From positions 1-63,767 of the IMG/VR virus record IMGVR_UViG_3300046479_000008: 63,767 nucleotides of DNA; one strand, 5' to 3'. The translations under genes were made by a program, and so were the position numbers. Source of the stretch: a virus (taxonomy: Duplodnaviria > Caudoviricetes). Shown here piece by piece: positions 2,603-50,666 of the stretch; position 1 is the stretch's first letter; each line of letters starts with the position of its first letter. The notes below the pieces were generated by a model, which was given only the letters and a program-made list of their open reading frames with translations, searched no databases and had not been told where the DNA came from.

Positions 2603-2884
2603 CTACTGTATGCGATCCAATTGTGCTCTAATTGCACGAGAGACTTCTCGAGCTATATCTGTTTTGCTCCGGAGCACTTCAAACTCATATGCCACTGCGC
2701 AACAGATCACAGAGAAGGTCCTTGGGTGTCTGGCTGTGAACTCGATTATCGGTGTAGGATCCCCGACGTATTCAAAGTTCTTTATCTCCACTGAGAGAAC
2801 CATCTCAGGGATCAAGGCCTGAACTCTCCCCCTGAGGGATTCTGCAACCTCAGGGAGAGCAATGGCTTCAGTTAGTAGATCCAT
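2603..2884 (-). CDS. hypothetical protein
   Basis: ORF in operon; likely start MDLLTEA. Confidence 0.6.
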   Translation of the reverse strand: MDLLTEAIALPEVAESLRGRVQALIPEMVLSVEIKNFEYVGDPTPIIEFTARHPRTFSVICCAVAYEFEVLRSKTDIAREVSRAIRAQLDRIQ

Positions 2885-4007
2885 CCTGGGGTCTCCGATA
2901 GACCACACCACCAATGACGGCCATGTGATCGGTGAAGATGATCTGCTCGGGAATCACTTCACGGAGACAAGGATCTACGTGGAGCAGCGCGAAACCCTGA
3001 TTGTAGGGGTTGAGGCCAGCCACATACTCCACATCCGTCTTGGCGATACAGCCGAGCACGAGGTTGAAGTAACTACCCATAAGCTCTGAAACTTTGGCCT
3101 TAAACTCAGGCTTGTGGGTGTGGCCTGACACTGAGCACATCCCATAGTCCTGTGGCTCGTGGCCAATGCAAATGGTATTGAAGTACTTCTTGTAGTTCTT
3201 CCGGGCTTCCTCTCTGGCCTCCTTGGGCTGGTAGGCAGAGAAATCCCCCTTGGAGACCAGGTTGATCTTGAAGGCATCCAGACCGAAGATCTGGTTCAGT
3301 GACACGCCCATGAGATCAAGCAGGGGAGCAAGGTAAGGCGTTCTATCGGCCATGTGGCGAAGTAGACGCAGGTCGTGATTGCCAAGTATGAAATCGATTT
3401 GAGCATTGGGGCAGTTCTCCCGAAGCGGCCTGAAGATCTTATCCTTGACAAACTCAAACCGCTCCTTGAGGTTCATCAAGCGAGGATCGTGATCGAATCT
3501 AGAGAACTCATAGAGGTCGAACACATCCCCGGCGAGGACGATGATACTGGGCTGGATTCGCTTGGCAGTCTCGAGGAACACGGAGAGCACGAAAGGATCG
3601 GCGTCAATGTCATGGAAGTCTGAGCCTACCAAGATGGTCTGCAGAGCCTTGCTAGGCTTCTTCTCATACTTACCCACCCAAGGGAGGATCTCTACTTCGA
3701 AGAATCCGCGATAGCGATCACGGGCACTGTGAGTGGCGATGGCCTTCTCGATCCGCTGAGCACCCCGGTTGAGTTCCAGGCCAGCTGTGCGCCGATATTC
3801 CTTGAAGGTCCCGAACCGTGAGCCCCACTGGTAGTCATTGAAGGCTCCATGTTTGCGGTATAACTCACGGGTCAGAAACTTGTCAGGAAACTCCTCCTGG
3901 ACACGCAGCAGATCCTGGAGCATTTCTTCTGTGTGGGCATCAAGAGGGTGCTCGGCATTGGTCTTGCTCTCAGCCTCAGCGATGCGTTGTCCGAGTGGCT
4001 TCCCCAT
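2868..4007 (-). CDS. calcineurin-like metallophosphoesterase with N-terminal helical (homing-endonuclease-associated-repeat-like) domain
   Basis: Motifs SDFH, AGDVFD, GNHD, GHTH; N-terminal RFGTFKEYRRTAGL. Confidence 0.85.
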   Translation of the reverse strand: MGKPLGQRIAEAESKTNAEHPLDAHTEEMLQDLLRVQEEFPDKFLTRELYRKHGAFNDYQWGSRFGTFKEYRRTAGLELNRGAQRIEKAIATHSARDRYRGFFEVEILPWVGKYEKKPSKALQTILVGSDFHDIDADPFVLSVFLETAKRIQPSIIVLAGDVFDLYEFSRFDHDPRLMNLKERFEFVKDKIFRPLRENCPNAQIDFILGNHDLRLLRHMADRTPYLAPLLDLMGVSLNQIFGLDAFKINLVSKGDFSAYQPKEAREEARKNYKKYFNTICIGHEPQDYGMCSVSGHTHKPEFKAKVSELMGSYFNLVLGCIAKTDVEYVAGLNPYNQGFALLHVDPCLREVIPEQIIFTDHMAVIGGVVYRRPQDGSTN

Positions 4008-25447: not shown

Positions 25448-26029
25448 TTATAGGTTAACATACTCTACTAGGCCATCAGCCCTGGAGAGTTCAAAACAGC
25501 GCATTGGAACCTCGACATCGAGTTCCACGGATTCCACTTGATGTAGGATATCCTGGACCAACCCCTTCCGGAGATACGCTAGGGTCATATGCGGTTTGTA
25601 TTCACCATGGGAGGAATGCTCAGCTAGAGCGGCATTCAAGCGCATTAGATCATCGGATTCCACACTCAGGTAGAGCACATCAAACCGGGGATCACTGGTG
25701 AAGCATCCGAACCCTGTGATGGTGAACCCCATAGGGGGTTGCACTTCATCGATGATCCTAGAGACCTTAGAGAGACAATCACTCTCACGGATCCCGTATA
25801 GGACGGTGACATGAGAGTCCAGGGTTCGACCATAGCTAGCGTATAACGCTGAGTCAGGGACCAATTGCTTAGAGATGAACTCAACATCACTCATTAGACT
25901 CTTAGGCGCAACGGCCATGACACAGGAGTAATCGTGCGTCGAGGGCTTAGACACATTGTTGACCGTCTCGGCTAACTGGTTAGCTAACCGATAACGCTTA
26001 GGTGATCTGAATAACAATGTGGATCTCAA
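25448..26029 (-). CDS. 2H phosphoesterase (T4 gp57B/Acb1-like)
   Basis: Two HxT motifs: SHVTVLYG and PHMTLAY. Confidence 0.85.
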   Translation of the reverse strand: MRSTLLFRSPKRYRLANQLAETVNNVSKPSTHDYSCVMAVAPKSLMSDVEFISKQLVPDSALYASYGRTLDSHVTVLYGIRESDCLSKVSRIIDEVQPPMGFTITGFGCFTSDPRFDVLYLSVESDDLMRLNAALAEHSSHGEYKPHMTLAYLRKGLVQDILHQVESVELDVEVPMRCFELSRADGLVEYVNL

Positions 26030-28967: not shown

Positions 28968-29414
28968 CTACTTGGACTTACGCTTCAACAGGTCAGACTG
29001 ATGAACCCTATTGCTAGGCTTAGAGATCACAAGGAGCTTCAAACCCAAGCAGTCCATGTCCTCCAACGGGTAGCCCAGTCGCTCTAGGATCTTACGATAC
29101 ACAGGCATCTTGCTGGGGTTGTTCCCGCCTACCCATAGCTCACCATACTGCTTGACCCATCGATCAATCACAGGGATCGCATCGAGCATGTTACCCTTGA
29201 TCGCACCGGGGATCTTAGTCATCTGCTGCTCTGGTGAGGAGAAGTCCTGACCCATGGCCTGTAGGGCTAGATGATAGCAGTTCAACAACGGGAAGTGAGT
29301 GAGCACGAGATCATACCCACCAACCTCAGCCTCATCGACTACTGTGTAGCCATAGTGTTCGATGTTGTCCTTGATATGTTCAGGTAGCTTACTTCTCTTC
29401 AACAGGGGATGCAT
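28968..29414 (-). CDS. leader-family protein (MHPLLKRSK)
   Basis: Same start as 27064..27717; YRKILERLGY; ends SDLLKRKSK. Confidence 0.8.
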   Translation of the reverse strand: MHPLLKRSKLPEHIKDNIEHYGYTVVDEAEVGGYDLVLTHFPLLNCYHLALQAMGQDFSSPEQQMTKIPGAIKGNMLDAIPVIDRWVKQYGELWVGGNNPSKMPVYRKILERLGYPLEDMDCLGLKLLVISKPSNRVHQSDLLKRKSK

Positions 29415-29886
29415 GTAGGATCTTCTCCAACTCTAACTTAGTCTGGAGAAGGTTCTCGTATAGGATTCCGTAACCCCCTTGTGCTCGCCACTGAGGTATG
29501 TTCAACCTAGAGTCATCGATGAGAACATAACCCGGCTGTGCATAGGCTTGCTTGTCTACTGCGTATGGGCCCACATGGAACTCCATAGGCCCCCAGTGGT
29601 CGGTGATCCATTGACGCTTGTCCTCCTCAGCATAGGGTATGTGCCGACGACGGGGCAACGCTGTTAGGATAGCCACAGGGACATTGAGCGAACATACATA
29701 GCTCATGAGCTCATAGGCCTCAGGCATAGGTTCCAGTAGGGAGAACCAGTGGGGGAAACTGAGCACGGCCTCCCACAGGGTTGAGTCCTGGAGCGCACGA
29801 GGGTCTACCTGACCTACCTCGGCAACCATCCGATCGAAGTCAGCGAGCACTCCGTCCATGTCAAGAAATATTTTCTTAATGTTAAT
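29389..29886 (-). CDS. HAD 5'(3')-deoxyribonucleotidase, probable ATT start
   Basis: IFLDMDGVLADF, ILTA, K..W, LIDD; TAAGGAGG RBS precedes in-frame ATT codons. Confidence 0.88.
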   Translation of the reverse strand: MNIKKIFLDMDGVLADFDRMVAEVGQVDPRALQDSTLWEAVLSFPHWFSLLEPMPEAYELMSYVCSLNVPVAILTALPRRRHIPYAEEDKRQWITDHWGPMEFHVGPYAVDKQAYAQPGYVLIDDSRLNIPQWRAQGGYGILYENLLQTKLELEKILHASPVEEK

Positions 29887-30117: not shown

Positions 30118-30951
30118 TCATGCATTTGCCTTATAGTAATGCCGGAGCGTATGCAGGGTGTCAGAGTCCAGATCCTTCATGTTGTCCAGCGCCCAGCCCA
30201 GATACCCACGGGGGACCTCCGACCAGGGTTGTCCTTTGTGCTTGCCGAACTGACAGGTACGGAGCAGGATGGGCCGGTCGGCCCATAGCTGCAACGCCTC
30301 TAGCGTCGACAGCTTACCCTTGAACACTCCCTCGTTCTCAAGCTCCTGTAGCTCACGGATCAGTAGCTTGGTGGTCACTAGGGCGTCTGGCAGGGCACTA
30401 TGGGCTGGCATCCCTTCGGCCTCAGGGACCTCCAGGGGTAGATCATAGCGCAGGAATTGATTGGTGTAATGCTCCGAGACCCACAGGTGCTTTGCCAATC
30501 TCAGGGTGCACAACACTGGACGATCCATGGAGGGTAGGAACATGAAGTCGAAGGCAGCGTTATGGGCCGCGAAGGCATCCATAGGCCGATGAGCTAGCAT
30601 AGACGCAAAAGCATCCATGAACCGGGGTGCCCCCGCGACATGGGCGTCGGTGATGTGATGAATCGCTGAGGCATCGCTGGGGATATGTCTACCCGGATCC
30701 ACTAGGGTCTCATAGGTATCAATGATTCTCCCTTGGTGCATCCATACCCCGGCCAACTGACACACCTTATGCCCCTCTGAGATCTTCAACCCTGTGGTCT
30801 CGGTATCCACCACTAGGTAGATAGCATCCATAGGATTCATGGATTCGGGTTCCTTCACGCAATACTGGCCATACCATTTAACGAAATCATCGTTGAACCC
30901 CACCTGGCCCTTGAGGAGTGCTTCGGCTTTCCATGCTTGAAATTCTAACAT
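30118..30951 (-). CDS. DEDDh 3'-5' exonuclease (exonuclease X-like)
   Basis: VDTETTG, AHNAAFD, HSALPD; C-terminal FGKHKG..VP.GYL.W. Confidence 0.92.
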   Translation of the reverse strand: MLEFQAWKAEALLKGQVGFNDDFVKWYGQYCVKEPESMNPMDAIYLVVDTETTGLKISEGHKVCQLAGVWMHQGRIIDTYETLVDPGRHIPSDASAIHHITDAHVAGAPRFMDAFASMLAHRPMDAFAAHNAAFDFMFLPSMDRPVLCTLRLAKHLWVSEHYTNQFLRYDLPLEVPEAEGMPAHSALPDALVTTKLLIRELQELENEGVFKGKLSTLEALQLWADRPILLRTCQFGKHKGQPWSEVPRGYLGWALDNMKDLDSDTLHTLRHYYKANA

Positions 30952-31662: not shown

Positions 31663-32112
31663 TCAATATGCTCCTGGTTGAACTTGGTAACATGCCAGTC
31701 CGGCACCGCGCCACATGGCGACCATCTTGTCGCGGTCTTCTAACACGAATAGAACGTCTTCGGGTTTGAAGTGGAAACGCTCCATGGCTAGCAGGAAGGC
31801 TTCCCATTTTACGATCGTGTCGGATCGAAAATCTTTTTTTGGTCTCATGAGCAGAGCTTCGCTCCCAAAGAACAATTCATGCTTAGTGAGCCACTCTTCG
31901 GTCTGGGGTCGCCACTGCTCATCACGACCAGTGACGTAGAGCACTAGATGTTCGGTTTCCATCATCCCACGGAGTAGGGCTTCCACCCCAGGGTAGATTG
32001 GATCATGAATACAATTGGAGTTGAACTCATCCCATTGCTTGCTCTTGGCGAAGTGCTCTCGGTGCTGAGCATCACAGAGGGTTCCATCTAGATCACATAT
32101 AATAATGCCCAT
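31663..32112 (-). CDS. HAD phosphatase (polynucleotide kinase 3'-phosphatase-like)
   Basis: CDLDGTL, VTGR, LLMR...DFRSDTIVK, EDR..MVAMWR..GL. Confidence 0.9.
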   Translation of the reverse strand: MGIIICDLDGTLCDAQHREHFAKSKQWDEFNSNCIHDPIYPGVEALLRGMMETEHLVLYVTGRDEQWRPQTEEWLTKHELFFGSEALLMRPKKDFRSDTIVKWEAFLLAMERFHFKPEDVLFVLEDRDKMVAMWRGAGLACYQVQPGAY

Positions 32113-33270: not shown

Positions 33271-34140
33271 CTAGAACTCCATGCTTTCGATAGCCTCAAC
33301 GATCTTACCCACGTTACAGGCGTAGAATCCTGAGGAATTCAGGTTGTTGACCTCGATCACCCTGGGGCCTTCATGGGTCTCAGCGATGTCAATCACGAAC
33401 CCTCGGGCGGGTTGCCATTGGTCGATCATCTTCTGAGCAAACTCAGCCACATACGGGGGAACGTATTCGTCATAGACCACCCGAAGTCCTAGCTTGTACA
33501 TGCTCTGGGTGACAATACGCTTGTCTACGACGAAGAACCGATACTCCGCAAGGATCTCCTGCCAAGGAGAAGCCATCACTTCCGTAGCTGGGCTCAACCA
33601 TCTGGGATCCCGACCCTGAGAGAGCAGAGTAGATCTCCAATCCTCGAACTCATCCCTGTCCAGGACTAGACCTGTAAAGGCCTTAGTGTCCTCACAAGGA
33701 CGAATGAACACCTTGTCCACAAAGGGGATCTGCAGCGTTCCCAATGGGCCCACGACAGCTACGGCGTTAAGGAGATTGTGACCCCAACCCTCCACCCATC
33801 TGGAATAATGGAAGTTGTCGTTCAGGAATGTCCCCGGAACCCATCCCCATTCCTTGGCTACGATGTTCATCAGGGTAGCCCCACAGACCATCGTATACAC
33901 CTTGGGAGATTCTTCCATCAGCGTCTGCGAGGGATGCATGCAAACTACTGGTCCGGTGATCTCTGGCATTTCGTCCACGTTGTCATAGAGCGAGAAGTCA
34001 AGATCGTAGGGAACCAGCTTGTGCGTGTGAGGAAGAAACTTGACCAGCGTGTAGGGGATCCCACCCCGGTCCAAAGCCTCCAAGAGGGCTTGATGACCGG
34101 CTTCGCTGAACACGTTGTCCTGAATAATCCAATGCATCAT
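33271..34140 (-). CDS. ATP-grasp domain protein (DUF4343-like)
   Basis: FIRP..DTKAFTG, EYRFFVV, FVIDIA, IEVN..NSSGFY. Confidence 0.85.
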   Translation of the reverse strand: MMHWIIQDNVFSEAGHQALLEALDRGGIPYTLVKFLPHTHKLVPYDLDFSLYDNVDEMPEITGPVVCMHPSQTLMEESPKVYTMVCGATLMNIVAKEWGWVPGTFLNDNFHYSRWVEGWGHNLLNAVAVVGPLGTLQIPFVDKVFIRPCEDTKAFTGLVLDRDEFEDWRSTLLSQGRDPRWLSPATEVMASPWQEILAEYRFFVVDKRIVTQSMYKLGLRVVYDEYVPPYVAEFAQKMIDQWQPARGFVIDIAETHEGPRVIEVNNLNSSGFYACNVGKIVEAIESMEF

Positions 34141-34141
34141 A

Positions 34142-34435
34142 TCACCAATAGAAGTTCTGCCACTCAGGATACTCATTTTGGAGAACCACCAGAGACACTG
34201 GCTTGGCCCAGACCTGCTTGTAGCTGGGCTCTTCCACTTCAATCAGAACCTCAATCTCCTGATTGCAGATCTGGAATCCTTTGATCTCCCCGAATTCCCC
34301 GATGTAGAGATTTCCTCCCATGGTGTATACGGGGGCAATGACCTGCGCATAGATCTTGGGCGGGAATTCATCGAAGTCCACCATCACATCTAGGTTGAAG
34401 AAATGCACACGATTCGCGTTCACTTGTTCTCCCAT
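34142..34435 (-). CDS. hypothetical protein
   Basis: 97 aa, tiled. Confidence 0.55.
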   Translation of the reverse strand: MGEQVNANRVHFFNLDVMVDFDEFPPKIYAQVIAPVYTMGGNLYIGEFGEIKGFQICNQEIEVLIEVEEPSYKQVWAKPVSLVVLQNEYPEWQNFYW

Positions 34436-35166
34436 AAGGCCTTGTAACCTGCTGACACATCAATCTCAATTGCATCCAGACCAAGCATCCGCGCTGCGAG
34501 CAAGGTTGTACCAGAGCCGGCAAACGGGTCCAAGACCATACCCTTGTTGGCTGCCAATTGTAGACACCACAGGGGAAGCTCTAAGGGGAATGAAGCAGGA
34601 TGCTCCTTAGGCCCGTGAGTGGTAGGGTAGGGGATGAACCACACATTGCCCCGGCACCGCTTGTCGGCCTTGATTCCCTTGAACCGAGCGATGTTGCTCT
34701 TGTCCTTATAGGGAACCCCGATGGCCACACGATCCAGGTCCACTTTGTTCTTGGTCAGGTGGAAGATATGCTCGTGGGTGGAGTTGAGGTAGCTGGGAGA
34801 GTTCACGGTCTTGAAGTGACCCTGTGTGTCCTCACCAATGCTGATGCTCTTGACCCATATGATGTCATTCTGCACTTGCCAGCCAGCATGAAGGAAATTT
34901 CCAAGCAGCTCATAGACTCGCATGGGCTGAGATGGTTTGGAACCCACCTGTAGGAAGAGACTCCCGTAATCGCTTGTGGCTCTCAATAACCCCTTAGCTA
35001 CATCCCACAGGAACATCCTATATTCTTCATCTCTTAGGTTGTCGTCCCAGACGTCATACTTGACCCCAATGTTATAGGGTGGGGATGTGACTGTGGTCTG
35101 GATGGACCCCTGGGGAATCAATGCCAGTTGCTCTCGGACATCCCCTACCCTATAGTCAATGGTCAT
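34420..35166 (-). CDS. N4-C/N6-A DNA methyltransferase (beta class)
   Basis: TSPPY precedes HPASFP and VLDPFAGSGTT. Confidence 0.93.
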   Translation of the reverse strand: MTIDYRVGDVREQLALIPQGSIQTTVTSPPYNIGVKYDVWDDNLRDEEYRMFLWDVAKGLLRATSDYGSLFLQVGSKPSQPMRVYELLGNFLHAGWQVQNDIIWVKSISIGEDTQGHFKTVNSPSYLNSTHEHIFHLTKNKVDLDRVAIGVPYKDKSNIARFKGIKADKRCRGNVWFIPYPTTHGPKEHPASFPLELPLWCLQLAANKGMVLDPFAGSGTTLLAARMLGLDAIEIDVSAGYKALWENK

Positions 35167-35167
35167 G

Positions 35168-36031
35168 CTACTTCCTCTGCATCTCGGGGATGGCCTCGTG
35201 GGTCGTGTGCTCCCAAACCTCTTGGATCTGATCCTTGGTCAGGGGATCGGTGCGGTAGAATTGCAGGGGTTTCTTGGGGTCAGCGGTTTTTTCGAAGCCG
35301 TTGAATCCCATACCTTGATTAGGATCATAGACCCCAGCTTGCTTGACCGGGCAATCGTGGTAGTTCTCGAAGGAGCAGATCCCTTTCTGAGCACACTCAA
35401 CACGGAGTACGGTCTCGAATTCAGGGAAGATCTCCAGGACGGCATTGCGCATGCTACGGGCCATGAGCTGAATCTCCCTCTGGGCTCTGCAGCACAGGCG
35501 ATGGGACAGGAACTCACTGAGGCTGCGCAGGTTGATGGTCATGAGCAGGTTGGTGCAGTTGGCGTGCGGTAGGGTCTGACGGGCATCCTGAGTGGGAACA
35601 CCCATCTCGATGAGCTTGAAGTAGCCCTCGTATTCACTCTTGAGCAGGTCTTCGTAGAAGGCGATCTGCTCACTATACTGCTCCTGGTGGTCTTCCCATT
35701 CCAGAGGCAGGCAATACTGCATATCTGAGATCACCACGGTGCGCTGGCTCTGCACGGAGAAGCTACAGGTCCTTGTGCGGGTGGCCTGAGCCATCAGCGA
35801 TCTGGATACGTCCTGGATCAAGAAGGAGAAGTTCACGTGCTCCCAGGCACTCCGGATGGTCCCGAGGGAGTATTTGAGCTCGGTGGCCTTCTTCTCAGGA
35901 CTCCAGGCCTTGATCTCGTCGAACATCGAGGGGCTCATGGACAGCCGGGTCATCTTCGCCAGCAAGAGCATGTCGATAGCGAAGGGGGTGTGGTTGATCA
36001 GGGTGACTTTAGGGTGTTTGAATTCAGTCAT
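35168..36031 (-). CDS. divergent ThyX-family flavoprotein
   Basis: EHVNFSFLIQDVSR, RTRTCSFSVQSQR (RHR changed to RTR), QDARQTLP, NLRSL..F..HRLC..AQREI. Confidence 0.88.
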   Translation of the reverse strand: MTEFKHPKVTLINHTPFAIDMLLLAKMTRLSMSPSMFDEIKAWSPEKKATELKYSLGTIRSAWEHVNFSFLIQDVSRSLMAQATRTRTCSFSVQSQRTVVISDMQYCLPLEWEDHQEQYSEQIAFYEDLLKSEYEGYFKLIEMGVPTQDARQTLPHANCTNLLMTINLRSLSEFLSHRLCCRAQREIQLMARSMRNAVLEIFPEFETVLRVECAQKGICSFENYHDCPVKQAGVYDPNQGMGFNGFEKTADPKKPLQFYRTDPLTKDQIQEVWEHTTHEAIPEMQRK

Positions 36032-36381
36032 GGATTCTCCTTCTCTAGGGATACTGCCTCGTTCAATAGCTGAAGGCCGTGGCGCAGAGCGTCATGGGCC
36101 TTCTTTACTGGGCCTTCCGGAGGGAACCGTCCTTCGGCTTCAGCGTTCCGGCGAATCAGCTCCATGGCCGCATAGAGATCCAGGAATTCCTCCTTTAGGC
36201 TCAGGAATTCCCGTCCTGCTGCATCTGGCTGAGCCTGTTCTAGGCTATGGATACGCTGCTGCAGGGCATCCAAGACCTCCAGGTTCTCTCGGCCACAAGG
36301 GCCTGACCCCATCTTCTCCCGGATCGAGGGGGCAACGTCCAGCCAAGGGATATGTGTGGAGAGGGTTTCAGCTGTGTTCAT
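36028..36381 (-). CDS. hypothetical protein
   Basis: 117 aa, ATGA-coupled to the thyX-like gene. Confidence 0.65.
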   Translation of the reverse strand: MNTAETLSTHIPWLDVAPSIREKMGSGPCGRENLEVLDALQQRIHSLEQAQPDAAGREFLSLKEEFLDLYAAMELIRRNAEAEGRFPPEGPVKKAHDALRHGLQLLNEAVSLEKENP

Positions 36382-36652: not shown

Positions 36653-37030
36653 ATGTTACTAAAGTTACTGCGTATTGCTTGCTCTGTGCTCAGAGAGGGC
36701 AGCAAGGTTGTCACCCGTAGCTCTGGGTGGCCTACAGCTAGGAAGCATCATTTGAAGGCTCAACCTTATTGTGCTGCCTGTGGGGGAACCACTCTGCTGC
36801 AGGTGCATCATATGTTGCCATTTCACCTTGATCCCCAGCTTGAATTGGATCAAACCAATCTAATCACTCTATGCATGGGAACCAAGGAGTGTCATCTGGT
36901 CATCGGTCATGGTGGTGATTTCCATCACTACAATCCTAATGTCCTGGGGGATGCCCAGACGGTGTTGAATGATCCAAGCAAGTTCGCTGCTGTCAAGGCC
37001 AATGCTGAGGCCACTAGGAAGCCATTATGA
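36653..37030 (+). CDS. small HNH endonuclease
   Basis: CAACG...VHH...NLITLC....CHLVIGH. Confidence 0.88.
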   Translation: MLLKLLRIACSVLREGSKVVTRSSGWPTARKHHLKAQPYCAACGGTTLLQVHHMLPFHLDPQLELDQTNLITLCMGTKECHLVIGHGGDFHHYNPNVLGDAQTVLNDPSKFAAVKANAEATRKPL

Positions 37031-37494
37031 ACGATAGAGATATGTTTCCAGAGATCCAAGATGGTGATCTAATTGCCTTCCAATGCCGAAAGGGATTGGG
37101 AGACTGGCTGATCCGTTGGTGGACCAAGAGCCCATGGACCCATGTGGGAGTAGCGTGTTGGTGGCGAGACACACTGATGATCGTGGAATCCTATCCGGGC
37201 TATGGGGTGCGTTGTCGTCCGCTGTCCCAGGACCTACAAGATGCTTACTGGATTCCCACCGGGCTGTCTTGGACTCCAAGGCTACATGAGATGGCCACTG
37301 ATCTGTTTGACACCCCGTATTCTTGGATCAACGATTGGCAAGCCGCATGGGGAGAAAAGCTGTTGGGACATCATATGCAATGTGCTCAATATGCCTCTTA
37401 CATCTTTACGCAAGCAGGACTCAAAGGAATGCCCTTGAGCCCCACACCGGGTAATGTTGTAGCTTGCTTCAAGGCCCAACCACAGAAGCTATGA
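37027..37494 (+). CDS. permuted papain-like amidase (YiiX/YaeF-like)
   Basis: DGDLIAF, SPWTHVG, PYS, QCAQY, PTPG. Confidence 0.8.
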   Translation: MNDRDMFPEIQDGDLIAFQCRKGLGDWLIRWWTKSPWTHVGVACWWRDTLMIVESYPGYGVRCRPLSQDLQDAYWIPTGLSWTPRLHEMATDLFDTPYSWINDWQAAWGEKLLGHHMQCAQYASYIFTQAGLKGMPLSPTPGNVVACFKAQPQKL

Positions 37495-37737
37495 GTAGTC
37501 GTAGACCTTCTGCATGAGCCAGATCTGCCAGCAGATCCAGAAGGCATATCCGAAGATCAGACACACACCGGGAATCCAGTGGAGACTCAGACCCAGGACA
37601 ATGGCTTCAATTCGAGCCAAATTGATAAGCTCCTCGGTCCAGACTTCTCTGTTCCAAATCTGCTTGTGCCGCAGGGCGGTCAGGGTGTCTGTGGACAGCA
37701 GGGTCTTGAAGTAGCTCTTGAGGTTCTGGAGAATCAT
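37489..37737 (-). CDS. small membrane protein
   Basis: Hydrophobic C-terminal half; ATGA-coupled. Confidence 0.6.
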   Translation of the reverse strand: MILQNLKSYFKTLLSTDTLTALRHKQIWNREVWTEELINLARIEAIVLGLSLHWIPGVCLIFGYAFWICWQIWLMQKVYDYS

Positions 37738-38729
37738 AGCCGATCCCTATTCTTGAGCATGGCCAGCTGACGGCCATATTGGTCCTTATGGTCAATGAAC
37801 CCGGCGACGATGCCAGCGTCCTCAACTACATCATGCATGAGCAGGTTGGGCTTCCAGGTGGCAAAGCGGCCCAAGGAATAGATGCTATAGAGTTCACTCA
37901 GGGCCATGATGAACCCTCTGCGAGCAGTCTCGTCAATGGGGACCAGCTTACCGAACCGTTGCTCCTTCATCTTGATGTCTCCGATCACGGCGTGCTCGAT
38001 ACCGAAGTTATCCAAGACGCACATGGCAGTCCGGGCCAGCCAACCCAAGCCAACCATATCCAAACCGGAACTGAAGTCATCCATACGAGGACGAGGCTCG
38101 GTCTGGAACTCAATGATCAACTGGTTGCCCGTTATTGAGCAGCGATAGAAGGATTCGTCCCCAGGGTAGTAGAGGGTCTGATAGACGTCAACCTCCGGCT
38201 CAAGCAGCTGCACCGTCACGGCCCAGATGCTCTTGTAGTTGAACTGCGGTGGCTCCGGCCAGCCCACCATCTTCATCATCACCGGCATAGGGATGGTGCT
38301 CACGGCAGGACACATAGCTCCTTGAGCGATGATCAGATCGTCTGCAGTCAAGGGGGAGTTATAGATGATCTCCACCCCCTCGGAGAGACGAGCCACGAAA
38401 TCCTTTGGGGCGATCCAACGGTCGGTGGTGTCTAGGTTCATGATGCTCCGACCACGCACAGTTCCGTTGGTCTTCAGGGAATACATATTCCCCAACCGCA
38501 GAGTCGGCTGTGTGATGATCTCTCCCTCGTAGTGAATCCCCTTCAGGACCTTCACCTTCTTGAACGGGATCCCTGTGATCTCTGAGATCTGTTCATCCCG
38601 GAATCGCAGCAGAGCCTCATGGTTATGTGGCAGAGAGGGTTGAGCCTCGTGGATGACTGGACGATGCTTGCGGAGCACATGGGCAGCAATCAAGCCAGCC
38701 ATACCCCCGCCATAGATATCAATGCTCAT
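37734..38729 (-). CDS. FAD/NAD(P)-binding oxidoreductase (UDP-galactopyranose-mutase/amine-oxidase-like fold)
   Basis: IYGGGMAGLIAA...IHEAQ; STIP; C-terminal YSLGRFATW. Confidence 0.85.
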   Translation of the reverse strand: MSIDIYGGGMAGLIAAHVLRKHRPVIHEAQPSLPHNHEALLRFRDEQISEITGIPFKKVKVLKGIHYEGEIITQPTLRLGNMYSLKTNGTVRGRSIMNLDTTDRWIAPKDFVARLSEGVEIIYNSPLTADDLIIAQGAMCPAVSTIPMPVMMKMVGWPEPPQFNYKSIWAVTVQLLEPEVDVYQTLYYPGDESFYRCSITGNQLIIEFQTEPRPRMDDFSSGLDMVGLGWLARTAMCVLDNFGIEHAVIGDIKMKEQRFGKLVPIDETARRGFIMALSELYSIYSLGRFATWKPNLLMHDVVEDAGIVAGFIDHKDQYGRQLAMLKNRDRL

Positions 38730-39475
38730 AGATCTCTCCCACTATCATATTCAGCTTCAGCTTCTGGTTCTGATTCCTCTAGGTTACGAGGTTTCATTAT
38801 CTCAGCCATTTGATAGTCATACCATTTCTCGGAGGTCATCAAGGCCCTGGAGAGAAGGTTCTGCAGGATGAACGCATCCACCGGCTTGACCCAGATGCCA
38901 TTGATTGTGTTGTCACCACAGAACGCTGGATGGTTTGGGAACAGGCTGTGATAGACCATCCCAGGAGTGCCCCTCTTGTAGTGACGCACCTTGCGGATCA
39001 TCTCCCAGTAGGGTTCAGAGTATTCAGGATCCGCATCCGGCAGTCCCTTGAGGAACCATTTGCTGTAGCTCTTTATGGTGCGACGGTATTCGAGCTTGTC
39101 CAAGTTGTGCTTGGGGAGATCAGAAACATCACGCCCGAGGAGCTCAGAAATCATGGCGAGATACCAGAGCACATCACCCATCTCCTCCATGATGTGATCC
39201 TTCTCCTCTTCGTTGAGATCAGCGGGATCCGTCTTGTCCATGTAACGCCAGAGTTTGGTGACTTCTTTGACCACTTCTCCGGCCTCTTCTCCCAACCCTA
39301 GGGTGAAGCACTGCAACACACCCTCGTGATTGGTGACATGTTCTGCAGCTTTATTCTGGAATTCTCGGAGATCTAGCTCCGGTTTATTGAGATCTGCGTA
39401 TTTTACCCACCGGCCACCATTGACTTCGAACAAATCTACGTTGCCGTTATTGAATTTAAGCTCATAACGCTTCAT
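38726..39475 (-). CDS. MazG-like NTP pyrophosphohydrolase with extra domains
   Basis: GLGEEAGEV...EEMGDVLWYL...NLDKL. Confidence 0.9.
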   Translation of the reverse strand: MKRYELKFNNGNVDLFEVNGGRWVKYADLNKPELDLREFQNKAAEHVTNHEGVLQCFTLGLGEEAGEVVKEVTKLWRYMDKTDPADLNEEEKDHIMEEMGDVLWYLAMISELLGRDVSDLPKHNLDKLEYRRTIKSYSKWFLKGLPDADPEYSEPYWEMIRKVRHYKRGTPGMVYHSLFPNHPAFCGDNTINGIWVKPVDAFILQNLLSRALMTSEKWYDYQMAEIMKPRNLEESEPEAEAEYDSGRDL

Positions 39476-39483
39476 TTTATCCC

Positions 39484-40134
39484 CTAAGAAAACGTGTCAA
39501 TTGAGGTCTTATCCAGCCAATTTAGCTCTTTTTGGAGGTTTTCCTTGGCCTGTTTGTCGTATAAAGCCTTGAAATAGCGAGTGCTATACAGGGTTTCCAG
39601 CTCTAACATGGACTTAATCCATGCTTTACGGCCCTCATGGAAGGCCGTAACACCACAAATAGGGACGAATTCCTGAGCTACTTGACGGGCACGAGTGGTA
39701 TACCCCTCCCAATTAGGATCGCCTAGATGAGAAAGATCCAAATCCATCAACAATCCTGAGTGAGTATTCACGATCCCAGTCATAGGAACCGGGAGATGCT
39801 CCTTGGTGGACATAATCATGTCCTCAATTGGGCCATTCCAACCCAACTCATGGGCCTTCATCCAGAGCATAGCATGGTCAGCACTGCGCTCTTCATTGTC
39901 CTTGGCCCCAGGGGTGTAGACCCAATCGTGGAAGATGATCCCATAGGCCATCAGATCGCGATCAATCTTGAGATCCTCGAACCAGCGGTTCTGAGCCATG
40001 AATTCATTCATGCGCTCGAACATGTAGTGCAGGTGCTCCAGGGTGTGGAACTTCCGATGTGGCTGCTGATATTGAACTAGCACACCCACCTGAAGATCTA
40101 CGCCTCTGTAAAAAGGCATAATGGACTCGTACAT
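39484..40134 (-). CDS. HD-superfamily phosphohydrolase
   Basis: PHRKFHTLEH, FHDWVY, NEERSA, TKEH, DLDLSHLG. Confidence 0.9.
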   Translation of the reverse strand: MYESIMPFYRGVDLQVGVLVQYQQPHRKFHTLEHLHYMFERMNEFMAQNRWFEDLKIDRDLMAYGIIFHDWVYTPGAKDNEERSADHAMLWMKAHELGWNGPIEDMIMSTKEHLPVPMTGIVNTHSGLLMDLDLSHLGDPNWEGYTTRARQVAQEFVPICGVTAFHEGRKAWIKSMLELETLYSTRYFKALYDKQAKENLQKELNWLDKTSIDTFS

Positions 40135-41784: not shown

Positions 41785-42618
41785 TTAATCAATTATGGTG
41801 CATCCACTCCAACGGGGAATGAGTTGAATCTTCCCTTGAGCCTCGACGAACCGATCTCGCATAAACTCTCGGATGGTTAACGTGCGGGCGATGCCTCCGA
41901 TGTCTCCGCTCTTAGATACAAATACCCCACCAAAACCTTCAACTTCAATTCCAGCCTGGGTGGTATTGATGTTGACTGGATCCATGCCCTCGTAATACTC
42001 TATACGCCTGTTTCCCTTTGGATGTAGAATATACGGATCCCAGAACTTACTATTGATGTTCGAGATACCACAAGTGTCCGTAAACGCCGGAGTAGACCCA
42101 TAAGGGTAAAGCCTATACGAGGTTACACCAATGGCTCTCACGGCCTTGGCAGACTTCAACAGCGCCAGGGCTTCATTCCATTCTAGATTCTCAGGCTCGT
42201 CCTCGCGCATCTTTGCCTTGAGCATCCAGGGAGACTCATCGGCCCTGGCAAACTTCACCTGGAGGAGATCCATACGCTGGATCGCTGCGGCTAGATCGTA
42301 TAGCGGAGTGGTCCAGAGTTCACAATTGAGGTAGATCTGGCTCCAGATGTTTGCGTCAAGTAGCTCCGCCAATTGGAGAATGATCTGCAGAAGATCTTCC
42401 TTGGTCATGGAGATCTTGAAAGGGTTCTCTGCCTGAACCTCCTCCCAGCTTGAACGAATCAAGCGGTTAACCAGGGTTCGCTCGTGGCCCTGATGTTCAA
42501 TATAATTGAACTTCTCCTTGAAGAAATTTCCCATTGCTTCCTGAGAGTTCCAAATGGTATCTGCCTTCATGGCAATGATCTCAGCTACTTCTGGCTGCAT
42601 TCTAAACTCCCATGTCAC
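41785..42618 (-). CDS. hypothetical protein
   Basis: 277-aa ORF downstream of sbcD-like. Confidence 0.7.
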   Translation of the reverse strand: MTWEFRMQPEVAEIIAMKADTIWNSQEAMGNFFKEKFNYIEHQGHERTLVNRLIRSSWEEVQAENPFKISMTKEDLLQIILQLAELLDANIWSQIYLNCELWTTPLYDLAAAIQRMDLLQVKFARADESPWMLKAKMREDEPENLEWNEALALLKSAKAVRAIGVTSYRLYPYGSTPAFTDTCGISNINSKFWDPYILHPKGNRRIEYYEGMDPVNINTTQAGIEVEGFGGVFVSKSGDIGGIARTLTIREFMRDRFVEAQGKIQLIPRWSGCTIID

Positions 42619-43594
42619 ATACTTGCATGATTAAGTCAACAAGCTCTTGGTCATCGCCACAAAGTTCCTTGATGATCTCAATCGGATCGGACACATTGAT
42701 CTCTCCGATGTCCGTAGTCACCTGGGAGATGAACGCCTTATACTCGGTTCCCTTGTTGGCCTCCAGGACCTTCTTGTCTCCGGTTCGGAAAGCGATCTCA
42801 AGAGGTTCCACGGTGAGCTCACGCTCCTTGAAACCCCATCCCGCTTTGTCAAATTTGAGCCCTAAAGCCATGATTGGGCGCTCAACCTCGTCCTGGGCCA
42901 GAGCGGCACGAGCGAGGCTCCCTGGGTGAAAATGGGTGCATATTCCAACTTCAGTCGGCTCTACCCTGGAATGGTCATGACCCCAAAGGAAGACATCAAA
43001 GTCAATATCCTCCAGGAGGTCGTAGCCGATGATCGGGGAACCAAACATGTTCTGGGCTCCACCGGGTCTAGCCATGGCATGGGCAATGCCGATCCGGTAA
43101 TCCACCCCCTCAGAGCGAGGAGGATAGGCTAGGATCTCATCCAGCATGGTCATGTCATCAGCATAGTCGAACCCTACAACCTCAACCACCAGACCATCAC
43201 GGTCGGTGAAGAACTCAGAGGCGCGGATAGGTTCATAGACTCCGGCGTGACAGAGCACACCAAGGGGTTGGTTGTTCAATGTGTCGTGACGGTCGAACTC
43301 GATGTCATGGTTGCCCACTACACCCCAAACCTTACCGGTGTTGAAGCCCCCGAATAGATCGATGACCTCGGTGATCAATCCTTTGGGATTGGCCTTGCTC
43401 ATGGGCTTCTTGATATGGAACACATCCCCGCCACAGAGACAAACCCCGTTGAGTCGATTGGTCCACTCCTGGATGGTCTCGATCTTCTTCAGAATGGCTC
43501 CACGGTAATCCCCGGTACGACGACCTGGAGGGATGGCCGACAGATGCATGTCTGTCATATACGTGAAGAACAATCCTTCTGAATCGATTCTCAC
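42602..43594 (-). CDS. SbcD/Mre11-like nuclease
   Basis: TDMH, GGDVFH, GNHD, AH, GHDH, PGSLAR; adjacent to SbcC-like gene. Confidence 0.9.
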   Translation of the reverse strand: MRIDSEGLFFTYMTDMHLSAIPPGRRTGDYRGAILKKIETIQEWTNRLNGVCLCGGDVFHIKKPMSKANPKGLITEVIDLFGGFNTGKVWGVVGNHDIEFDRHDTLNNQPLGVLCHAGVYEPIRASEFFTDRDGLVVEVVGFDYADDMTMLDEILAYPPRSEGVDYRIGIAHAMARPGGAQNMFGSPIIGYDLLEDIDFDVFLWGHDHSRVEPTEVGICTHFHPGSLARAALAQDEVERPIMALGLKFDKAGWGFKERELTVEPLEIAFRTGDKKVLEANKGTEYKAFISQVTTDIGEINVSDPIEIIKELCGDDQELVDLIMQVCDMGV

Positions 43595-50222: not shown

Positions 50223-50666
50223 CTATTTATACTGAACCGTGATTGGCGCGAACTTATGAAGGTCAGGATCTAGACACAGACTGAGCAGCCACATTGCATT
50301 GCTGACCATTCGGCCAAGCTGACTCTCCCTCCACAGGTGATCCATACCCAGTACAACCACCTTCTCGTCTGTCATTGTGCGGACTTCAGATAGGTTACAC
50401 CCGATAGCCATGAACACATAGACAATGAAGTTATCACCAGAAAGCCGGGTCACTAGATCCCAACCTTCCTCAGAGATCTCTACACCAGTCTCTTCCTTGA
50501 ACTCACGGCTCATAGCCTGTCGAGGAGTTTCTCCCTCTTCAATATGGCCACCGATGCCATTGAGTAGGCCCTTCTGCCAGTCCGGGCGTTCCTTACGGAT
50601 CATCGCAACATGAGACTGGGTGGCATCAAAACCGAAACCCAATACGTAGGGGATTTGTTCTGTCAT
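50223..50666 (-). CDS. NUDIX hydrolase
   Basis: GGHIEEGETPRQAMSREFKEETG Nudix box. Confidence 0.95.
   Translation of the reverse strand: MTEQIPYVLGFGFDATQSHVAMIRKERPDWQKGLLNGIGGHIEEGETPRQAMSREFKEETGVEISEEGWDLVTRLSGDNFIVYVFMAIGCNLSEVRTMTDEKVVVLGMDHLWRESQLGRMVSNAMWLLSLCLDPDLHKFAPITVQYK

Follow-up and report, generated by a model that had tools for sequence, protein, structure and literature searches.

ThyX, the flavin-dependent thymidylate synthase (FDTS), carries the signature RHR-x7-S, and the histidine of this motif (His79 in Thermotoga maritima numbering) reportedly binds the phosphates of flavin adenine dinucleotide (FAD), as the ThyX structure paper of 2003 is said to describe. ThyX enzymes are homotetramers whose active sites lie where subunits meet, and they form thymidylate with bound FAD, NADPH and methylene-tetrahydrofolate. 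Glu144 has been mutated in work on folate binding, according to the titles of PDB entries. PMC11940539 calls both Tyr91 and Ser88 critical and strictly conserved. It proposes Tyr91 as the general acid for methylene transfer; mutation of this residue slows flavin oxidation about 1000-fold, and it is hydrogen-bonded to His53, which stacks on the folate pterin and on the reduced flavin. The gene presented here occupies positions 35168-36031 of a 63,767-base IMG/VR virus record (CheckV completeness 22%), the whole of which is referred to as the window. It encodes a ThyX-family protein of a class, named class B below, that appears essentially confined to viruses, lacks both His53 and Tyr91 and is nearly always encoded together with a flavoprotein.

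A ThyX-family protein with a changed active site

Profile scores and the predicted structure together establish that 35168-36031 encodes a genuine member of the ThyX family. The product matches Pfam Thy1 (PF02511) with E 4.1e-38 over profile positions 2-191 of 191, is given 105.8 bits by the NCBI equivalog model TIGR02170 thyX (cut-off 87.9), and is also matched by the PHROG thymidylate-synthase families. Its AlphaFold2 (AF2) model, computed with 134 relatives as input, has a mean predicted local distance difference test score (pLDDT) of 95.5 and a predicted template modelling score (pTM) of 0.92; the top Foldseek matches of the model in PDB are ThyX structures only, with 1o27_A of T. maritima at E 1.6e-13, template modelling (TM) score 0.77 by target and 24% identity. 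Any annotation pipeline would therefore call the gene ThyX, and the homology proposed in an earlier reading of the window from its letters alone (the sequence-only reading) is borne out, since both Thy1 and TIGR02170 score above their cut-offs and the predicted structure matches T. maritima ThyX.

Residues were paired by HMMER alignment to T. maritima ThyX chains and by a 134-row alignment of relatives; T. maritima numbers are chain numbers minus 12, presumably the offset due to the tag. The relatives came from a search of 1.84 billion cluster representatives, which gave 3,864 matches at E <=0.001, and the 134 rows are those 190-320 residues long among the best 158 of these. The dUMP (deoxyuridine monophosphate)-binding set of T. 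maritima is present in full in the window ThyX, with Q75, R78, R80, S88, R90, R147 and R174 corresponding to Q82, R85, R87, S95, R97, R151 and R178, respectively. Indeed, Q82, R85, R87, R97, R151, N167, R169 and R178 are kept not only in the window protein but also, at 86% or more, in each of the two classes of relatives described below, and the S95 column holds Ser in 115 and Thr in 11 of the 134 rows. The conservation of these residues, on the dUMP and flavin-N1 sides, in the window protein and in both classes supports the view, put forward earlier, that nucleotide binding is probably kept.

The changes concern other positions. The motif strings quoted in the sequence-only reading are correct: RTRTCSFSVQSQRT stands at residues 85-98 and GTIRSAWEH at 57-65, and the NLR (167-169) and HRL (HRLCCRAQREI, 177-187) motifs are present as well. 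In the first string R78-H79-R80 is replaced by R85-T86-R87, so that the RHR-x7-S signature is departed from by a single change, His to Thr, both Arg and the Ser being present; at its end Thr98 takes the place of Tyr91. In the second string E58-H59 is retained as E64-H65, and the counterpart of His53 is Ile59, not Thr58 as had been supposed. The window protein thus has Ile59 and Thr98 where ThyX has His53 and Tyr91, described as conserved and critical, and both signature histidines are missing, as the earlier note had it. Two further changes had gone unremarked, Tyr91 to T98 and E144 to Gln148. Across the 134 rows the His53 column reads H 69, I 57, V 4, L 2, N 1 and A 1, and the His79 column H 77, T 44, S 7 and other 6. 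The histidines are indeed lost, a trait that this gene shares with a large virus-only clade rather than a peculiarity of its own, and the loss of the RHR histidine is not what defines that clade.

The seven closest relatives, all metagenomic and 72-86% identical, read RTRT[AC]SFSVQSQRT, with every motif residue kept. The substitutions are therefore neither a sequencing error nor decay, and their retention at this level of identity indicates purifying selection.

The Cys-containing C-terminal part noticed earlier is also there, with C213, C219 and C227. Together with C180 they form a four-Cys pattern (RLC-x-R-AQ ... C-x5-C-x7-C) found in 96-97 of the 134 relatives, in both classes, which is a probable metal site. 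All 23 ThyX matches in PDB end their alignment before the C-terminal cysteines, by profile position 201 of 234, and therefore no solved ThyX appears to show this putative site.

A virus-only class of ThyX

The 134 relatives split into two classes, class A with 70 rows and class B with 64. At columns 59, 65, 86 and 98, class A has His, His, His and Tyr, whereas class B has Ile (89%), Phe (86%), Thr (67%) and a variable residue other than Tyr (T, V, I or A). The RHR histidine is retained by 11 of the 64 class-B rows, Thr86 being the commonest residue there; from the alignment, class B is thus best defined by the loss of His53 (to I, V or L) and of Tyr91, rather than by the RHR histidine, and it lacks the whole His53-Tyr91 interacting pair. 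At column 148 Gln is found in 61% of class B, vs Glu in 96% of class A. Other residues are conserved specifically in class B: K26 (95%), R29 (98%; the column is Cys in 83% of class A), Y54 (88%), T58 (95%) and W63 (81%).

The window ThyX has the class-B residues at both defining columns (I59, T98). It departs from the class at column 65, where the Phe of 86% of class B is absent and the window clade keeps His65. A FastTree phylogeny of 130 rows and 246 columns, from which four rows shorter than 205 residues had been dropped and in which the four trait columns were left, parts class B from class A by one branch (63 vs 67 rows, support 99). The seven-row clade of the window branches as sister to the remaining 56 class-B rows; at two positions, His65 and Ser92, it has kept the class-A residue.

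The distribution of the class was followed with peptide patterns built from a 15-row alignment of class-B sequences. They match 542 viral contigs, whereas in 185,579 prokaryote species (one genome each) they match only 12 contigs, all from metagenome-assembled genomes (MAGs), 2.6-52 kb long and scattered over phyla; 11 of these 12 also bear a phage replication module. Tree and pattern counts thus point to a monophyletic, essentially virus-only class of ThyX. Among isolated phages, tblastn with the window ThyX gave 641 records, all below 60% identity, which include 292 Pseudomonas phages (PB1-like Pbunavirus), Xanthomonas Carpasinavirus and 27 Escherichia phages. The ThyX of FoX7 and of a PB1-like phage reads RTRTGAYQQETSRA, while that of Aeromonas phage Gekk3-15 reads RHRHGSFAERTMRA yet has Ile at the His53 column. 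For the window's own clade, a scan of viral sequences returned only loci at most 41% identical, of the canonical class on inspection, and of two metagenome scans the first returned none and the second one contig of 2,010 nt, devoid of upstream DNA.

A flavoprotein partner

A gene for a Rossmann flavoprotein-like protein, termed the partner, lies 1.7 kb upstream of ThyX on the same strand. Its PHROG match, phrog_4828, has no annotated function, a Pfam scan gave no match at E 0.01, including PF01593, PF13450 and the families of UDP-galactopyranose mutase (UGM), and a profile search of PDB gave a best E of 0.063, which is not significant. The AF2 model has a pLDDT of 91.5, and Foldseek finds it to resemble L-amino-acid oxidase, protoporphyrinogen oxidase (PPO), renalase and UGM, with E values of about 1e-9 to 1e-10 and TM 0.5-0.6. 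Its structure neighbours in the Atlas are virus-only clusters, the nearest named ones being Amino_oxidase/PPO families (TM 0.71-0.75 to Amino_oxidase clusters). The three glycines of the N-terminal GxGxxG (G7, G9 and G12) are invariant or nearly so among 49 sequences, and the model has the two-domain FAD fold starting with this motif. Near the C-terminus YSLGRFATWR aligns to YSRGRFGAWR of UGM, with an E of 0.19 that is not significant.

The association with class B is nearly constant. A homologue of the flavoprotein is found upstream of ThyX, on the same strand, in 90 of the 95 other class-B loci fetched (3/3 phage records, 11/12 MAG contigs, 76/80 viral contigs). The gap between the two genes is <=150 nt in 63 of these 90 loci, and the spacing ranges from 0 to 3.5 kb. 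Three of the five loci without the partner end before the upstream DNA; the other two, the viral contigs L049 and L095, are true misses, since seven diverse queries found no partner in the 4.5 kb and 2.5 kb, respectively, that lie upstream, and they are the sole exceptions among 92 evaluable loci. By contrast, the partner is upstream of none of 80 canonical-class viral ThyX genes, nor of ThyX in any of 29 further viral loci (28 with the RHR...RY motif, one unclear). In tblastn the partner matches 362 phage records, with counts for Pseudomonas (292) and Escherichia (27) equal to those of ThyX.

Many class-B loci also share a replication module: of 93 sources, 84 have a HAD_PNKP phosphatase, 77 a DnaQ-like exonuclease, 50 a Pol III alpha-like polymerase, 39 a short-chain dehydrogenase and 33 a 159-aa protein without Pfam match. 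Since the whole module is common to many loci, part of the synteny of ThyX and flavoprotein reflects shared ancestry; the pair nonetheless persists at 28-41% ThyX identity to the window protein and over the whole range of spacings. A complex prediction for ThyX and flavoprotein scored 0.00 in both runs, which were made without controls, and says nothing on binding.

Searches of the literature, with subscription journals and supplements outside their reach, returned no description of class B as a distinct virus-only class, of the residues it has lost or of its near-constant flavoprotein partner, and no assay of a class-B ThyX from Pbunavirus, Carpasinavirus or coliphages; the ThyX family itself is known.

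What the enzyme may make

The product of 35168-36031 is predicted to be a flavin-dependent enzyme modifying C5 of dUMP, and its likeliest single product would be deoxythymidine monophosphate (dTMP), to which we give a probability of about 0.42. Synthesis of dTMP is favoured because the family scores lie above the cut-offs, the dUMP site is intact, no other thymidylate synthase is present and most T in the Pbunaviruses F8 and 14-1 is canonical. As for the third point, ThyA (PF00303) was found neither in the window nor in any of five class-B phage records, two of them 100% complete by CheckV, and the class-B ThyX is therefore the only thymidylate-synthase-like gene seen. As for the last, about three quarters of T in F8 and 14-1 is canonical, as given in the preprint PMC12191111. 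Canonical T is still needed by these two phages.

In a dTMP-forming enzyme of this class, the one-carbon unit would come from methylene-tetrahydrofolate via the reduced flavin, and the class-B-specific K26, R29, Y54, T58 and W63 may take over the role of the missing pair, His53 and Tyr91. The flavoprotein might act in the redox half-reaction or in some step unrelated to it, and the operon of HD-phosphohydrolase, MazG and flavoprotein upstream of ThyX could supply dUMP.

Several observations weigh against dTMP. Class B lacks both Tyr91 and His53, residues called critical in PMC11940539. The Tyr91 position is variable in class B, and therefore no function is kept there, and the counterpart of Glu144, so constant in class A, is Q in only 61% of class B. 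The near-absence of the class from cells, 12 MAG contigs vs 542 viral contigs, is odd for a plain thymidylate synthase. Furthermore, the partner has the fold of amine oxidases, PPO, UGM and renalase, which is not known as the fold type of the usual flavin reductases. Finally, Pbunaviruses that carry the ThyX-flavoprotein pair contain thymidine derivatives whose genes are unassigned (PMC12191111). A changed donor or chemistry, suggested in the sequence-only reading, is for these reasons plausible (three folate/NADPH-side residues replaced, a virus-only class, a flavoprotein partner, odd thymidines in related phages), although dTMP synthesis is still the single likeliest activity.

The strongest competitor, which we regard as possible but on balance doubtful, is that class-B ThyX and the flavoprotein attach a sugar-derived, non-methyl carbon chain to C5 of dUMP and so start a thymidine hypermodification. 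It can be conceived in two versions. In the first, an aldose would be joined through its C1 to flavin N5 as an iminium, by the UGM-like partner or by the flavin of ThyX (UGM makes such an iminium with C1 of galactose, its sugar), and C5 of dUMP would attack this carbon rather than the folate-derived methylene; in the second, a carbon nucleophile would capture the folate-derived exocyclic methylene intermediate, in place of its reduction. The residues lost are indeed those for folate stacking and general acid catalysis, in a class that is virus-only, and the partner, with its amine-oxidase/PPO/UGM-type fold, accompanies class B and none of the class-A viral loci; 39 of the 93 sources have a short-chain dehydrogenase gene after the pair, and the window contains the nucleotide hydrolases MazG, HD-type phosphohydrolase, NT5C and NUDIX.

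Further support comes from the Pbunaviruses. According to PMC12191111, the virion DNA of F8 and 14-1 contains the new nucleosides 362 U and 390 U, read as thymidine derivatives, with the F8 adduct taken for a tetrose sugar alcohol and that of 14-1 for a cyclised aldopentose; the modified T makes up about one quarter of T and lies in a TG motif, and the authors state there that known modification genes are missing from the family. Both F8 and 14-1, in which these derivatives are unexplained, encode a class-B ThyX, reading RTRTGAYQQETSRA, and the flavoprotein (gp065 in F8, gp66 in 14-1). By hand arithmetic, 362.3 equals deoxyuridine (dU) plus a pentose minus H2O plus 2H, and 390.3 equals dU plus a hexose minus H2O, as in a ThyX-type condensation with an aldose in the place of formaldehyde; however, this match restates the authors' reading of thymidine plus tetrose or pentose and is not independent evidence.

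Other points run counter to a sugar-derived substituent. A TG motif on about one quarter of T, as reported in the same preprint (PMC12191111), fits a post-replicative, sequence-specific chemistry better than the incorporation of a modified nucleotide, and DNA is an unlikely substrate for class-B ThyX, since the residues that grip the 5'-phosphate of a mononucleotide are all kept. The adducts of F8 and 14-1 differ, yet their ThyX proteins are 93.8% and their flavoproteins 97.3% identical. More divergent between the two phages is the PNK-like HAD protein (2940-3956 in locus L207 of 14-1 and 2772-3836 in locus L208 of F8; 338 vs 354 aa), at 80.8% identity; small open reading frames (ORFs) are 78-82% identical, while ThyX, flavoprotein, exonuclease and helicase around the PNK-like gene are 94-99% identical. 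In the window, no sugar-nucleotide gene, glycosyltransferase or deoxynucleoside monophosphate kinase was seen among the scanned ORFs, which are part of the total. The full form of the proposal, in which class-B ThyX and its UGM-like partner would be a new nucleotide C-alkylating system whose reduced flavin brings C1 of an aldose, or a folate-derived methylene captured by a sugar carbanion, to C5 of dUMP, the 362 U and 390 U derivatives would be C-C-linked pentitol- or hexosyl-deoxyuridines and the window phage, as a basal member, would make a related base, is likewise doubtful.

Another chemistry or another nucleotide is improbable. On this view the enzyme might use flavin to hydroxylate or oxidise a pyrimidine nucleotide, or it might methylate deoxycytidine monophosphate (dCMP) or uridine monophosphate (UMP). 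There is precedent in that ThyA homologues of phages RB69 and DLP3 bind flavin and make 5-hydroxy-dCMP (PMC13326640) and that PolB, a paralogue of ThyX, methylates not only dUMP but also UMP (PMC5954106), and the loss of folate-side residues, with Arg85 and Ser95 retained on the flavin side, would suit such an activity. However, the T. maritima contacts to uracil and to the deoxyribose phosphate are unchanged, with no sign of recognition of cytosine or ribose, and the match to PolB (4p5a; E 1.8e-4) falls far short of that to T. maritima ThyX (E about 2e-8).

That the substitutions are mere decay and the protein a non-catalytic remnant or nucleotide-binding regulator is very unlikely even though three to four residues held essential in the literature are gone, as selection acts on this old and large class (the single split of 63 vs 67 rows), its members only 28-41% identical to the window protein share K26, R29, T58 and W63, the fold model is very confident and the gene is present in 292 Pseudomonas phage records.

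Gene neighbourhood in the window

The features of the window that bear on the two genes are collected in Table 1. The stop of the MazG-like gene overlaps the start of the flavoprotein gene, and the gene of the 117-aa ORF is joined in the same way to ThyX; this ORF and the opposite-strand HNH/amidase pair make up the 1.7-kb split of flavoprotein and ThyX. Because the two genes adjoin in most relatives, the HNH/amidase pair (36653-37494) has the appearance of mobile DNA inserted within the operon. The N6/N4 methyltransferase is a local neighbour: it is absent from the gene clusters of the 93 sources, and in tblastn six of the 29 further loci have a match to it upstream of the class-A ThyX gene, but only a weak one (22-24% identity).

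Table 1. Position and traits of class-B ThyX, its flavoprotein partner and other genes of the window
Feature	Coordinates	Strand	Remarks
Class-B (virus-only) ThyX homologue	35168..36031	(-)	287 aa; R85-T86-R87, S95, R97, T98, I59, H65, Q148, C180, C213, C219, C227
Rossmann flavoprotein-like partner	37734..38729	(-)	331 aa; N-terminal GGGMAGL; phrog_4828; amine-oxidase/PPO/renalase/UGM-type fold; virus-only clusters
HAD_PNKP-type phosphatase	31663..32112	(-)	149 aa; third most conserved module gene (84/93 sources)
DnaQ-like 3'-5' exonuclease	30118..30951	(-)	conserved replication module (77/93 sources)
MazG-like NTP pyrophosphohydrolase	38726..39475	(-)	stop overlaps flavoprotein start by 4 nt
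HD-type phosphohydrolase	39484..40134	(-)	phrog_19425, no Pfam match; 8 nt upstream of MazG gene
117-aa ORF, no known family	36028..36381	(-)	stop overlaps ThyX start by 4 nt
N6/N4 DNA methyltransferase	34420..35166	(-)	1 nt downstream of ThyX; local neighbour
HNH endonuclease	36653..37030	(+)	between flavoprotein and ThyX
C92-like papain-fold amidase	37027..37494	(+)	phrog_1128; between flavoprotein and ThyX
NT5C deoxynucleotidase	29389..29859	(-)	
NUDIX protein	50223..50666	(-)	
Calcineurin-like phosphoesterase	42602..43594	(-)	

Nucleotide hydrolases are unusually dense in the window, with NT5C, MazG, the HD-type phosphohydrolase, the calcineurin-like phosphoesterase and NUDIX. Two other genes deserve mention. 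Two genes downstream of ThyX, 33271-34242 (-) encodes an R2K-clade ATP-grasp protein (PF14243, E 1.5e-21; phrog_7313, function unannotated). Farther away, 25448-26029 (-) encodes a 2H phosphoesterase (2_5_RNA_ligase2, E 4.7e-11), whose likeness to the anti-CBASS protein Acb1 is sub-threshold (18.8 bits vs a cut-off of 27).

Comparison with known systems

The canonical ThyX/FDTS enzymes (T. maritima TM0449, PDB 1O26/1O27/8REO; Mycobacterium tuberculosis ThyX, 2AF6; PF02511, TIGR02170) share with the window ThyX the fold, at TM 0.77 by target, and the dUMP/flavin contacts Q75, R78, R80, S88, R90, R147 and R174. They differ from it in four residues, His53, His79, Tyr91 and Glu144 being replaced in the window by Ile, Thr, Thr and Gln, and in the C-terminal extension of about 70 residues with the four-Cys pattern, which lies outside all solved ThyX. 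Furthermore, class B is virus-only and has a flavoprotein neighbour that looks obligate.

PolB of polyoxin biosynthesis (PDB 4P5A) shows that a ThyX-family enzyme can be recruited to a C5-modified nucleotide that is not a DNA precursor, according to PMC5954106; it differs from the window ThyX in being cellular and in its weaker match (E 1.8e-4). RB69 gp48 and DLP3 gp80 are phage ThyA homologues in which cofactor and product have changed, at the start of the pathway to a sugar-bearing base, as PMC13326640 describes; they have the unrelated ThyA fold and act on cytosine, so that they offer an analogy only. As for the partner, UGM and the amine-oxidase/PPO/renalase flavoproteins have a GxGxxG Rossmann FAD domain and a two-domain fold like it, but the partner is about 100 residues shorter, has no significant sequence match to them and has virus-only clusters as its nearest ones.

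The question of function extends beyond the window. Hundreds of phage genomes, therapeutic Pseudomonas phages among them, label class B as FAD-dependent thymidylate synthase on a family score. If class B still makes dTMP, His53 and Tyr91 are dispensable and the class is a second solution to ThyX chemistry; otherwise, class B is the leading candidate for the reaction that opens the thymidine hypermodification of Pbunavirus, which matters for phage escape from nucleases.

The nearest counterparts among isolated phages are the ThyX proteins of Pbunavirus (PB1, F8 gp059, 14-1 gp60), Carpasinavirus (FoX7 gp53) and related coliphages, which carry this annotation and belong to class B like that of the window. 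The RTR motif of the window is common to the ThyX of F8, 14-1, FoX7 and PCCM_PaP001, and in the Pbunavirus, Carpasinavirus and coliphage loci the flavoprotein is upstream and the HAD_PNKP, exonuclease and polymerase genes are downstream, as in the class of the window. The window ThyX is, however, only 32-36% identical to these proteins, its clade branches as sister to the rest of class B and, unlike in Pbunavirus-type loci, its pair is split by 1.7 kb with opposite-strand genes.

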